Below are positions 13,100-16,551 of a stretch of DNA of 16,551 nt, in pieces. Below the pieces are notes generated by a model. That model saw nothing but the letters and a program-made list of their open reading frames with translations, was not told the DNA's origin and searched no databases. The position numbers and the translations under genes are program-made. How positions within the stretch are numbered: position 1 is the stretch's first letter; each line of letters starts with the position of its first letter. Source of the stretch: a virus (Duplodnaviria > Heunggongvirae > Uroviricota > Caudoviricetes). Where the stretch lies: IMG/VR virus record IMGVR_UViG_2802429241_000002; one strand, 5' to 3'.

Positions 13100-13200
13100 T
13101 GATGACGAATGAAATTTCAAAAACTAGCCTTTTTCCGCGACGCTCCCGCCCCGTGGCAGGCCCCCCCTCCGGGAGGACCCGTCAGCCTGACAGCTCTGAC
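13100..13200 (-). other. candidate cos site (cosQ-cosN-cosB); putative cosN around 13140..13151
   Basis: Minus-strand sequence GACGGGTCCTCCCGGAGGGGGGGCCTGCCACG-GGGCGGGAGCGT-CGCGGAAAAAGG resembles my recollection of the lambda cos junction (GACGGGTCCTTTCCGGTGATCCGACAGGTTACG-GGGCGGCGACCT-CGCGGGTTTTCG); located upstream of Nu1 with an AT-rich cosB-like stretch between. Confidence 0.5.
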
Positions 13201-13604
13201 GAACGTCTGATACAACGCCCTGCATGAATGGCATCGGAATAATCCAGAAAGGCATAGCATCGTGCCCACAAGAATCTGTGTAAGTGTCCTGTTTCTTCCA
13301 TCCCCGCACAGGACTGGCGAGCATGAGGGGCAAACCCGCGAACCATAAACGCGCTAAAAACCCTGTGTGCATCGTTTTTGATTATTCCCGCACACTCGCG
13401 CAGAAGGAGTTCCCCGTCGGGCTACGGTCTCTGTTAATGGGGGAATACGGCGACGATACGGCGCACAGAAATAGATCAGAAATCTATTGCCCACAATCCA
13501 CATAAAGGCAATACATTGCATGAGCACAGGTAATCGCCTATGCTCATGTATTGGCATTCTTTTGCCGCCGGCGAATCTTCAGCGGATTATCCTTGGCCGG
13601 TTTT

Positions 13605-14069
13605 TTATCTGAGGCATTGCTCGCTAATATATAGCTGTGCCCCCTCCAGTTGTTTTTGCATCAATATCAGCCGCTCTCTGAGGGTGAAATAATCCCGTTC
13701 AGCGGTGTCTGCCAGTCGGGGGGAGGCTGCATTATCCACGCCGGAGGCGGTGGTGGCTTCACGCACTGACTGACAGACTGCTTTGATGTGCAACCGACGA
13801 CGACCAGCGGCAACATCATCACGCAGAGCATCATTTTCAGCTTTCGCATCAGCTAACTCCTTCGTGTATTTAGCATCGAGTGCATCAGCAGCACGCTGGC
13901 GCTGCTGCATGTCAGTAATGGTGGCGGTCACCTGCTTCAGCTCACTGACTTTTTTATCACGCTGTTCTTTGTAGGCGATGGCGTTATCACGGTAATGATT
14001 AACAGCCCATGACAGGCAGACGATGATGCAGATAGCCAGAGCATAAATAATCGCGGCAACTCTGCTCAC
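13605..14069 (-). CDS. Rz: i-spanin Rz
   Basis: ...[33 protein letters not shown]...[38 protein letters not shown]... is near-identical to lambda Rz. Probable GTG start at 14069 (MSRVAAII), overlapping the endolysin stop as GTGA; the track's start at 14084 is a TTG codon. Confidence 0.9.
13667..13849 (-). CDS. Rz1: o-spanin Rz1 (lipoprotein), nested in the +1 frame of Rz
   Basis: [60 protein letters not shown] is near-identical to lambda Rz1, with lipobox (VVGC) and proline-rich region. Confidence 0.9.
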
Positions 14070-14599
14070 TGCTCTATCCCCCAACAGGCTAATACGCTTT
14101 CCTGGTCACGACGAATAACCTGACCGTAACAATTATTTGAACGAATGCGGCAATCACGTCCACCGTCCTTTATCCACCAGCGAATCGCCTCGCATGCGCC
14201 TTTACGATCACCGGCATTCAGCCGCTTATAAAACGTCGACGGAAAACACTTACCGGGGCCAATGTTATAGGGACAGAATGACGCGATACCGGCTTTCTGT
14301 GGCTCGGTCAGTGGAACTTTTATATTGCGCTCCACCCATGCCAGCGCCTTATCCCGCTCAATGGCGTTAACCTGGGCGCATTTTTCCTTCGACAGTTTCA
14401 TTCCCGGAATAACAGGTTTACCGTCCACCATCGTTGCTCCCCGACAGATGGTCCATATGCCGGAGCCATCGCGGTATGCAGTGGTGTGATTCCCCTCTTT
14501 TTCATCCAGAAACTGATCGAGAATGTCAGGGGCAGGAGCACTGGCGGCAATCAGAGCCAGAACAGCAGCCGACAGGCTGTATCTGATTTTTACGTTCAT
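14066..14599 (-). CDS. R: endolysin (T4-lysozyme-like fold) with N-terminal SAR/signal-anchor domain
   Basis: Catalytic spacing E-8aa-D-5aa-T ([16 protein letters not shown]); weakly hydrophobic Ala/Ser-rich N-terminus ([18 protein letters not shown]); resembles the phage 21/Stx-phage lysozyme type. No recognisable SD upstream. Confidence 0.9.
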
Positions 14600-14712
14600 G
14601 GATATTTATCAGGATTTATCGGCTTCAAATCCCCGGATATGTTAAATCTTACCTCGCCAGTGATGGGCACTGGCGGGAGGAGGATGTCAATCTGATAAAC
14701 ACAGAGGTGACT

Positions 14713-14973
14713 ATGGATTACACAAATCTACCAAAACAAACTTTTGCTGATTTAATCGCACTCAGGCAAGCAGTCGTAGCTCTAATCAACTTGTTGCCGG
14801 AGAAGGAAAAGGAATTAGTTAAAGCGCTTCTTAACAGAACTGCCGCCGATTTTTCATCATATCCACTGACAGATGACCTTGCGGACCTTCCTGAATTAAT
14901 TGCAGCGTCCGCCATTAAGCTTACTGAAGAGATTTACCCTCCTCAAAAATCTTCACAAAATTCCTGCGAGTAA
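14713..14973 (+). CDS. hypothetical protein (86 aa), plus-strand moron inserted in the lysis cassette
   Basis: ATG 14713 preceded by GAGGTG SD; AT-rich with rare codons (CTA, AGG, AGA); followed by a strong intrinsic terminator on the same strand. No recognisable family. Confidence 0.6.
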   Translation: MDYTNLPKQTFADLIALRQAVVALINLLPEKEKELVKALLNRTAADFSSYPLTDDLADLPELIAASAIKLTEEIYPPQKSSQNSCE

Positions 14974-15472
14974 CTTCAATGCAATAATCGTAAAACGCCG
15001 CAAACTGCTCATCGCGGCGTTTTTTTTCATCTTCAGAAGGAATAAGCACCGACAATTTTTTATTCAGATCAGCGACGCTGCCCTCCTGTTTTTCAATGAG
15101 CGATTCAATGTCATCTTTTTCTGACCGCAATGCCGTCGGTGGCGTCTTCAGAGAACCAGTAATTCTTCCCGGTAGCTTTCCTTTGTAGGTTATCCACACA
15201 TTCTGCGCCTCTAAAATTATGGGGCGCTTTTCCGGCGACTGCTCATCCCCTTCACATAACCCGGCAGCAACATCCAGGAATACCTGTCTGATTCTCATTC
15301 TGGCTGCTGCCTCATAAAACTCCAGTGCAGCACCTTCAACACGATCCATAGTGATATCCAGCTCAAAAATCTCACCGTCAAAGCGTTCTTTGTCCTGTAA
15401 GGCTAAAGTTACCGTAACTTTATGCTCAAAATTACGGACTCCTTTCACAACCAGTTCATAGTCTTGAGTCAT
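14921..15472 (-). CDS. hypothetical acidic protein (183 aa) between holin and endolysin
   Basis: ATG 15472 lies 4 nt after the holin stop with SD (GAGGAGAG) inside the holin 3' end, suggesting translational coupling; no TM segments or recognisable motifs. Confidence 0.65.
   Translation of the reverse strand: MTQDYELVVKGVRNFEHKVTVTLALQDKERFDGEIFELDITMDRVEGAALEFYEAAARMRIRQVFLDVAAGLCEGDEQSPEKRPIILEAQNVWITYKGKLPGRITGSLKTPPTALRSEKDDIESLIEKQEGSVADLNKKLSVLIPSEDEKKRRDEQFAAFYDYCIEVTRRNFVKIFEEGKSLQ
14992..15027 (+). terminator. intrinsic terminator for the plus-strand 86-aa gene (stem CGCCGC/GCGGCG followed by T8)
   Basis: GC-rich hairpin and T8 run read directly; lies inside the coding region of the convergent 183-aa minus-strand ORF. 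Confidence 0.65.
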
Positions 15473-15476
15473 TGGA

Positions 15477-15692
15477 TTACTCTCCTCTCGCAGCCTTACG
15501 CCTGTCTTCTTTAATCTTGAAATAAAGATTTGTCAGATACGTCAGCAGGCCAAAAACCAGGCTACCCAGCACACCGATTGCAGCCCACTGTGACGGAGTT
15601 ACTTTATCGAGTAACTGCAATGCCCAGAAACCAGCATTACCCGCCGATGTGCCATAGGCAACACCTGTTGTTAACTTATCCATTGATTTCAT
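15477..15692 (-). CDS. S: class II pinholin/antiholin (phage 21 S-like), dual-start MKSMDK
   Basis: [71 protein letters not shown] closely matches phage 21 S (two TMDs, C-terminal ...[13 protein letters not shown]) with the two in-frame starts 71/68. Confidence 0.92.
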
Positions 15693-15911
15693 ATCCTCAC
15701 CCCGATGTACACGGATGGTGCAATATGTTTGAAAATATCGGAGTCTACGGGGTAGTTTTTACAGCACACGTTGTTCTCAACGGCGCTAAAAAAACATACA
15801 CATTAAAAATGTGGTTAATTATTTTGAAAGAAAATCATATATTAATTAATAATACGAGAAATGTTTTCATATTTAGTGTACTGTATACGGCCATTTATAC
15901 AGGAAAAGCCT

Positions 15912-16082
15912 ATGTCAGAACGTAAAGACTCAAAATCACGCCGTAATTATCTCGTTAAATGTTCCTGCCCAAACTGCACCCAAGAGTCAGAACACAGTTT
16001 TTCAAGAGTACAAAAAGGTGCCCTTTTGATCTGCCCTCATTGCAACAAAGTATTCCAGACAAATCTTAAAGCTGTAGCCTGA
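15912..16082 (+). CDS. small zinc-ribbon protein (56 aa; CxCxxC ... CxxC), function unknown
   Basis: ATG 15912 with AGGA SD; MSERKDSKSRRNYLVKCSCPNCTQESEHSFSRVQKGALLICPHCNKVFQTNLKAVA; AT-rich upstream region. Possibly related to small prophage-encoded putative zinc-binding proteins of E. coli (from memory, unverified). Confidence 0.55.
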   Translation: MSERKDSKSRRNYLVKCSCPNCTQESEHSFSRVQKGALLICPHCNKVFQTNLKAVA

Positions 16083-16142: not shown

Positions 16143-16165
16143 AAAAAACCCGCCTGAGCGGGTTT
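16143..16165. terminator. bidirectional intrinsic terminator (AAAAAACCCGC-CUGA-GCGGGUUU)
   Basis: Stem flanked by an A-run on one side and T-run on the other; the minus-strand reading gives stem + UUUUUUAUUAU (strong); the plus-strand T tract is weaker. Confidence 0.6.
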
Positions 16166-16446
16166 AATATTGTGGTGCTTTTTGTGAGAGTCATCCACTT
16201 ACGCACTTTGTTTTGCTATGCCAGCAGTTAGCTTCTGCTGTAAAACTATTCATGCAGCAAACCTGCACTTCACCACAATGGTTAGCATACTTTTCCTGAT
16301 TAAGTTATTACCAAATATGCTGGCCATTGTTTCATGTATTGGACCTCCTTACTCTTTATTAAAGAGATCCAATATTCACCACTCTGTCTGTATCTCCACT
16401 CAGGCATCAGCCTTCTTCGTTATCGTATACAGACAAACTATGAATT

Positions 16447-16551
16447 TTAATCATTAATGATGACATTTGCTGCTGCAGGACCTTTAGCACCACTCTCTAC
16501 AGAGAAGGTAACCTTTTGACCTTCAAATAAGGTTCGATAATTATCATTCTG
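16447..16551 (-). CDS. cold-shock protein (CspA family), C-terminal 34 codons (gene continues beyond window end)
   Basis: Minus-strand translation ...[34 protein letters not shown] matches the conserved C-terminal half of CspA-family proteins (CspA ...[37 protein letters not shown]). Confidence 0.85.

Follow-up and report, generated by a model that had tools for sequence, protein, structure and literature searches.

The stretch of DNA analysed here (hereafter the window) is the 16,551-nucleotide (nt) IMG/VR virus record IMGVR_UViG_2802429241_000002, assigned to the Caudoviricetes, and comprises the late region of a lambdoid Escherichia coli prophage that appears to be complete; on the minus strand it extends from the lysis genes via those for the terminase (DUF1441 and GpA), the portal and a ClpP-capsid fusion to that for the tape measure. 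We were concerned with the interval between the holin gene S and the endolysin gene R of its lysis cassette, where an initial annotation, made from the sequence alone, had reported two unassigned genes in convergent, overlapping orientation. S (15477-15692, minus strand) codes for an S21-type pinholin (EssQ/EssD; PF04971, E = 4e-34) that is identical at 71 of 71 residues to EssQ of E. coli K-12, and R (14066-14599, minus strand) for a signal-arrest-release (SAR) type lysozyme/endolysin (PF00959), with Rz and then Rz1 downstream. Between them lie a 183-residue open reading frame (ORF) of the YdfR family (14921-15472, minus strand) and an 86-residue ORF on the plus strand (14713-14973), which share 53 nt at their 3' ends (14921-14973). 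A hairpin followed by a run of eight U residues (14992-15027), the predicted terminator of the plus-strand gene, is embedded in the 183-residue coding sequence, and 321 nt free of any minus-strand gene separate the latter from R. The anatomy in the initial annotation is accordingly sound down to each coordinate and feature: these are two genuine convergent genes with overlapping 3' ends, and the terminator of the plus-strand gene does lie within the minus-strand coding sequence.

The ATG of the 183-residue ORF is situated 4 nt past the holin stop codon, and its Shine-Dalgarno (SD) sequence GGAGAG (15480-15485) lies in the last codons of the holin gene, a layout which indicates that it is translationally coupled to the pinholin. 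The product has a pI of 5.0 and is devoid of a hydrophobic segment, in keeping with its earlier description as acidic and apparently cytoplasmic. Residues 1-112 (15137-15472) match positions 1-92 of the 93-position PF07041 (DUF1327) profile with 139.2 bits against a cut-off of 25, and the family phrog_2091 spans residues 1-183 of 183 (E = 3e-107). Over residues 1-74 the identity with K-12 YdfR is 84%, and full-length homologues are 75-99% identical. The DUF1327 N-domain is followed by a C-terminal tail, a charged helical segment formed by residues 113-183 (14921-15136), which has stand-alone homologues elsewhere. An AlphaFold2 (AF2) model of the whole protein attains a mean predicted local distance difference test (pLDDT) score of 54, with values of 60-83 for residues 1-66; the N-domain is modelled as three beta-strands and a helix. 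The 86-residue protein likewise matches a catalogued family, phrog_2572, over its full length (E = 1e-53), and is represented in RefSeq by WP_001557934.1, for which the RefSeq/PGAP (Prokaryotic Genome Annotation Pipeline) label is 'hypothetical protein'. The earlier statement that neither protein resembles anything recognizable is therefore superseded: the larger one is a YdfR/DUF1327 member, and both match PHROG families end to end. The phages 2H10 and PhiR63_1 and hundreds of E. coli genomes have the same proteins annotated.

The premise that in such cassettes S is directly followed by R also proved not to be the rule in E. coli, as the Qin prophage of K-12 has the order essQ-ydfR-rrrQ. Of the 5,426 complete E. 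coli genomes searched by megablast with the interval, 4,277 gave a match, in most cases to the holin-proximal half, where the N-domain is encoded. E. coli prophages thus normally have a gene between S and R; specifically, a DUF1327 gene follows an S21-type holin in most complete E. coli genomes. The full arrangement as in the window is present in 271 of the 5,426 genomes; E. coli B REL606, whose copy is 97.5% identical, and the phages 2H10 and PhiR63_1 share it with identities of 97-98%. Like the window gene, K-12 ydfR (b1555) has the gene for an identical S21-type holin immediately in front of it and that for a SAR lysozyme behind it, with the same coupling of its start. Unlike it, the K-12 protein has 103 residues and the stop of its gene overlaps the start of rrrQ, whereas the window adds a 71-residue tail of separate origin, and Qin is without the 321-nt spacer to R that carries a gene on the opposite strand. 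Across the YdfR family we observed three length classes, namely short forms of 103-116 residues, forms of 171-211 residues with a tail of the type seen in the window, and forms of 268-296 residues with a tail-like segment plus a further domain. In the 296-residue form R begins 36 nt downstream, and there is no opposite-strand gene. One further homologue (P0099, 207 residues) contains about 100 residues of the DUF1327 domain twice, as an internal tandem duplication.

The plus-strand gene starts at the ATG at 14713, preceded at a distance of 5 nt by the SD sequence GAGG (14704-14707). The ORF listing instead places the start at the GTG at 14707, an unlikely choice, as that codon abuts the SD sequence without any spacing. 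Its product is an acidic protein with three predicted helices (residues 8-27, 30-48 and 56-74; AF2 pLDDT 72), and the gene is present in 315 of the 5,426 complete E. coli genomes. A word-indexed search recovered near-identical E. coli relatives only, and an exhaustive HMMER search yielded diverged relatives of 93 residues (57% identity) and 89 residues (41% identity) that sit in the same convergent arrangement. With both ORFs conserved in diverged lineages at 41-57% amino acid identity, the arrangement is, on this comparative evidence, beyond chance. The SD sequence and start codon of the small gene are present in every lineage, the insertions and deletions between its alleles are in frame, and the ORF is intact in 76 of the 81 fetched loci in which its start motif was located. 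Its ratio of nonsynonymous to synonymous substitution rates (dN/dS) is 0.22-0.41 at dS of at least 1, and 0.22-0.32 at dS of about 1-1.6 in the part outside the overlap, where at deep divergence it is the lowest of the six frames. Together with the values for the tail given below, this indicates purifying selection on both genes.

On the minus strand, a 65-residue ORF (14718-14915) occupies the mirror antisense frame of the small gene, between the stop of the 183-residue gene and R. This frame is mostly open in all lineages, as expected from the mirror effect of a gene in the plus frame, and has the second-lowest dN/dS of the six; it is interrupted by an internal stop in a Salmonella allele (L098) and is without a conserved start. 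Given that stop, the unconserved start and the lower dN/dS of the plus frame, we rejected it as a shadow ORF. The converse, that the plus-strand ORF is itself the shadow of a longer ancestral YdfR, was likewise rejected, since the extra C-terminal domain of the 296-residue form is unrelated and the plus frame is under selection. Searches with the small protein and the tail against NCBIfam, PADLOC, Pfam at permissive E-values and PDB profiles returned nothing meaningful; homology and fold searches furnished no functional lead for either, and Rfam recognized no RNA family in the S-R interval. The label 'DUF1823' carried by records of PhiR phages goes back to a sub-threshold match (best E = 0.023), and a match to a 975-residue repeat protein (P0139) is spurious.

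Homologues of the tail also occur as stand-alone genes, of 73 residues after Rz in Salmonella, 73 residues at locus L013 and 67 residues after S in E. coli (P0154), and the tail matches the families phrog_36381 and phrog_15975. The Salmonella prophages concerned possess holins of the PF16931 and PF05449 families (holin_8/holin_3_7), a GH19 endolysin and a DUF2514 Rz. Here the 73-residue tail gene starts at the stop codon of Rz and converges, ahead of the terminase, on the 93-residue version of the small gene with an overlap of 59 nt; its product is homologous to residues 113-183 of the window protein (...EQKRRDENEAALY...VLVRNLQELK..Q). In E. coli prophages of the enterohaemorrhagic type, the 67-residue stand-alone tail gene directly follows S and converges on the 86-residue gene. 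A third E. coli lineage combines approximately the first 70 residues of YdfR with a different middle segment and a diverged tail, and its small-gene partner, 41% identical to that in the window, again overlaps by 59 nt. As the overlaps of 53 nt in the window and 59 nt in the other lineages differ by 6 nt, the two genes keep the same relative reading phase throughout. In the part of the tail free of the overlap, dN/dS is 0.22-0.25 at dS of 0.54-0.64 for the Salmonella alleles. The tail remains in frame in the 171-, 176-, 180-, 183- and 211-residue forms of the YdfR-family protein, in the last of these across a 28-codon insertion, and a tail-like segment is also found inside the 296-residue form.

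The homology between E. coli and Salmonella begins at the tail and ends at an element ATATTTATCAGG(A/C)TTTATC, about 95-125 nt upstream of the start of the small gene; in the window the R start codon (14597-14599) adjoins this boundary, and the homology with the Salmonella copies ends there. From these limits, the start of the tail and the upstream element abutting the R start codon, the module measures about 0.55 kb. Its GC content of 42.8% compares with 46.4% for the N-domain and 51.9% for R, a modest difference. The overlap of ydfR with rrrQ in K-12 and the 36-nt gap in the 296-residue form show that in relatives the genes on either side of it are neighbours, and so mark it as an insert. 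These comparisons indicate that a module comprising the tail, the small gene, the upstream element and the hairpin in the overlap region is mobile between E. coli and Salmonella prophages. Hence the earlier notion of two genes inserted between S and R gives way to that of a YdfR N-domain already in place, to which a mobile module of tail plus small gene has become fused. A Salmonella locus (L008) that might have counted as a further independent instance of the arrangement is a deletion remnant of the module. Scans of GTDB and metagenomes added no further lineage, PLSDB plasmids gave no match, and the Salmonella-type tail had none in the phage collection. Literature searches by accession, PHROG identifiers and DUF1327 brought up no paper describing the module, the sole relevant one being on an interaction with RNase E. 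At two Salmonella loci a gene for a pertussis-toxin-S1/Scabin-like ADP-ribosyltransferase lies just upstream of the module-bearing lysis cassette (L104 500-1225 and L105 497-1222).

The conserved element upstream of the small gene (14604-14643, plus strand), which is near-invariant across lineages, contains a direct repeat ATTTATC-AGG-ATTTATC (14604-14620) and a candidate promoter made up of a -35 box TTTATC (14615-14620), a 17-nt spacer and a -10 box TATGTT (14638-14643). The repeat and a GGnTAT motif are conserved in the E. coli and Salmonella copies more strictly than the coding parts, and could represent the promoter/operator of the small gene or a signal of the late strand just upstream of R. 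In the presumed 5' untranslated region of the small gene an inverted repeat GCCAGTG-ATGGG-CACTGGC suggests, on inspection, a possible leader hairpin (tentatively 14656-14674, plus strand); other lineages have a leader hairpin of different sequence in the same place, with weak covariation support. The same upstream element and leader precede an unrelated 91-residue gene (phrog_18136) at the loci coding for the 176-residue YdfR form (e.g. L121). A comparison of the two cargo proteins with hhalign gave a probability of 0.1, and we discarded the idea that they are homologous. Like the 86-residue gene, the 91-residue gene converges on and overlaps the YdfR-family ORF and has its own terminator inside that ORF, consisting of a hairpin and a run of seven U residues; the 176-residue form ends inside it. 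Moreover, the in-frame insertion of the 211-residue form (L003 3320-3955 of phage PhiR5_1; also P0048 and P0100) is an antisense remnant of the 3' end of the 91-residue gene and its terminator. It follows that at the L003 locus the cargo was swapped by recombination.

The hairpin in the overlap region begins 19 nt past the plus-strand stop codon, and has a GC-rich stem of 10 bp (AAAACGCCGC/GCGGCGUUUU) and a 12-nt loop, followed by the U run. An automatic terminator scan missed it, as the scan permits loops of up to 8 nt. The minus-strand RNA can form a hairpin here too, but with a weaker U-tract. The hairpin sequence lies in the codons K-K-R-R-D-E-Q-F-A-A-F of the 183-residue gene, and it is found at the same codons in all lineages. 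The Salmonella alleles show 0 substitutions in these eleven codons at a dS of about 0.6 in the neighbouring ones. At two loci (L016/L106) the stem CGCCGC/GCGGCG is replaced by CGCCACC/GGUGGCG through the paired changes CGC>CAC and GCG>GUG (R>H and A>V), so that pairing is kept. Furthermore, the 296-residue YdfR form, which is without the small gene, lacks exactly the hairpin codons. These patterns are suggestive of selection on the RNA structure itself, whose simplest role would be to terminate transcription of the small gene, but do not amount to proof, since they comprise one compensatory event and few lineages.

Several phages encode modulators of the host RNase E, as exemplified by T4 Srd, T7 gp0.7 and phiKZ Dip. 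The experimental information on the YdfR family comes from the K-12 protein, which binds the catalytic N-terminal half of RNase E (Rne 1-597/598) in bacterial two-hybrid (BACTH) assays and by co-purification; its residues 1-72 suffice for this binding, and the purified protein brings down RNA (PMC13232886). The counterpart of this binding fragment in the window protein is the stretch of residues 1-74 with its 84% identity to K-12 YdfR. YdfR is comparable to the above modulators in contacting RNase E, but this is a functional analogy only, as it shares neither sequence nor fold similarity with them. By analogy with the K-12 protein, the N-domain of the window protein most likely acts in the cytoplasm via the catalytic half of RNase E and/or RNA.

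The second element of the locus finds its closest parallel in the morons of lambdoid phages, a concept due to Juhala and Hendrix, whose classical cases are lom and bor of phage lambda, the latter located downstream of Rz and converging with the late operon. Like these, the small gene runs opposite to the late operon, brings start signals and a terminator of its own, is less GC-rich, can be replaced by other cargo, and stands between genes that adjoin each other in related phages. Unlike bor and lom, it is positioned inside the lysis cassette and not after it, and its product is predicted to be a cytoplasmic helical protein and not a lipoprotein or outer-membrane protein; unlike classical morons in general, it has its terminator and last 17 codons within a converging late gene and always travels with the tail. 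Among the roles that the initial annotation had offered, that of a moron best fits this context, i.e. a shared control region with exchangeable cargo, a dedicated terminator and lower GC. A role in phage defence found no support, as PADLOC-DB gave no match for either protein or the tail at E <= 0.1, and neither did one in lysis timing, which is taken up below.

The reading that we favour, with moderate confidence, is that the locus combines a late, holin-coupled accessory protein with a moron-like antisense cassette, two separate units joined by recombination. The 183-residue gene would on this account be a gene of the late lysis operon, its alignments pointing to a mosaic of the YdfR N-domain and a separate helical tail. 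In the lysogen, the small gene would be transcribed from its own weak, sigma-70-like candidate promoter, and the hairpin terminator would keep its transcript from continuing, in antisense, into ydfR and S. Once the prophage is induced, Q-modified, antiterminated polymerase from pR' would pass the hairpin and the whole small gene on its way to R, and this late readthrough would silence the small gene through convergent transcription and RNA pairing. The 183-residue protein would be made along with the holin from the late transcript and, by the K-12 analogy, would act in the cytoplasm through RNase E and/or RNA.

A number of observations weigh against this reading. The candidate promoter is a weak match to the consensus (3/6 and 4/6 positions), and a standard scan made no call there. 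The U8 tract following the hairpin is confined to the window-type E. coli lineages, those of Salmonella and L016 being weaker. The AF2 model of the 183-residue protein is poor. The binding to RNase E is known for the 103-residue K-12 protein and is carried over to the window allele by homology, and over-expression of K-12 YdfR alters few transcripts (PMC13232886). Finally, the tail and the small gene are constant companions, a hint of some functional relationship that the plain moron model leaves unexplained.

That last point is the starting point of the alternative that fares best, though we still consider it unlikely, namely that the tail and the small protein form a cognate pair, in which the small protein, made in the lysogen, might bind and neutralize the tail or the YdfR-tail protein, or the two mRNAs might regulate each other through the 53-59-nt overlap and the hairpin, akin to the antisense-regulated pair of the initial annotation. 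In every diverged lineage the two genes co-occur in the same overlap phase, at three genomic positions; the conservation of the hairpin exceeds the coding requirement, and both products are small, helical and cytoplasmic. However, a physical overlap by itself forces joint inheritance, the 268- and 296-residue forms have the tail without the small gene, three loci (L100-L102) retain an intact tail beside an N-terminally destroyed small gene, and the same slot also accepts the unrelated 91-residue cargo. Nor did we find signs of a type I-like toxin-antitoxin pair: there was no match to a toxin-antitoxin family in Pfam, NCBIfam or PADLOC, and both products are acidic and hydrophilic, with top Kyte-Doolittle hydropathy values in a 19-residue window of 0.27 for the tail and 1.62 for the small protein. 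A more elaborate and decidedly speculative version, to which we assign a low probability, would have the tail, the small gene, the hairpin and the upstream repeat constitute a self-contained mobile two-gene switch, in which a three-helix protein expressed in the lysogen, or its mRNA, restrains a late helical effector working with the RNase E-binding YdfR domain. If true, this would link the prophage state to the control of host RNA decay at lysis.

The coupling of the 183-residue gene to the holin and the constant location of the module within lysis cassettes would also be compatible with the 183-residue protein, or its tail, being an antiholin-like regulator of lysis timing that acts on the pinholin or the endolysin, the more so as cytoplasmic antiholins such as T4 RIII exist. 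No test lent support to this role. Three unrelated holin families (PF04971, PF16931/PF05449 and PF16080) accompany the tail, which may follow either S or Rz, and this makes a holin-specific timing function improbable; the tail shows no association with a single holin type, has neither a membrane nor a holin-like segment, and bears no similarity to known lysis regulators in Pfam, PHROG and profile searches. The sole experimental result for the YdfR family is, moreover, the binding of RNase E and RNA. On balance we regard a timing regulator as a poor candidate.

Yet less credible is the view that the 183-residue ORF is a decayed or accidentally extended ydfR whose last 71 residues are meaningless read-through. 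In its favour, PGAP treats the REL606 copy (L001 4538-4873) as an incomplete pseudogene 'missing C-terminus', despite the intact 183-residue ORF; YdfR-family ORFs do extend into the DNA that follows them, as in the 176-residue form; and the tail is modelled by AF2 with low confidence. Against it, the stand-alone tail genes have coupled starts and the low dN/dS reported above, and the tail is retained in frame across the 171-211-residue forms, with a tail-like segment in the 296-residue form. The existence of stand-alone tail genes, the purifying selection on the tail and its in-frame retention likewise cast doubt on the PGAP flag on the long YdfR forms, which is probably wrong and an artefact of their variant C-terminus. 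The proposal that the plus-strand ORF is untranslated, with an antisense RNA or the late-strand mirror ORF as the conserved feature, could appeal to the mostly open mirror frame with its second-lowest dN/dS, but is highly improbable in view of the still lower dN/dS of the plus frame at deep divergence, its universal SD sequence and start codon and in-frame indels, and the interrupted, startless mirror frame.

Elsewhere in the window, an 82-residue ORF between Rz and the gene for the DUF1441 terminase subunit (13124-13372, minus strand) has no Pfam match. Upstream of the holin, a 73-residue zinc-ribbon protein of the YnfU family (PF23499) is encoded on the opposite strand (15861-16082, plus strand), with a promoter-like site at 15824-15853 on the same strand, and may be another moron-like small gene; a terminator-like hairpin at 16146-16165 was scored on the minus strand and is not assigned to it. 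At the edge of the window (16380-16551, minus strand) the cspA thermoregulator (Rfam RF01766) is matched in part, with 38 bits, which is below the gathering score; the match is cut by the window end and fits a putative cspB-like cold-shock gene, as is found in Qin.

In conclusion, the locus is real but largely ordinary, consisting of a variant YdfR architecture and an 86-residue member of an existing PHROG family, and its general importance is limited. What is unusual about it is that the terminator and last 17 codons of the small gene lie within a converging late gene, and that both move together between E. coli and Salmonella prophages. Our analysis corrects the view of the interval as a strange insertion, in that a gene between S and R is usual for prophages of E. 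coli and each of the two proteins falls into a catalogued family. It also delimits a compact module, mobile and about 0.55 kb in length, that prophages of E. coli and Salmonella share and that has a slot for swapping cargo. It further connects the locus with the binding of RNase E and RNA, the one lead from experiment on this family, and so offers a hypothesis for what a cytoplasmic protein co-translated with the holin may do.

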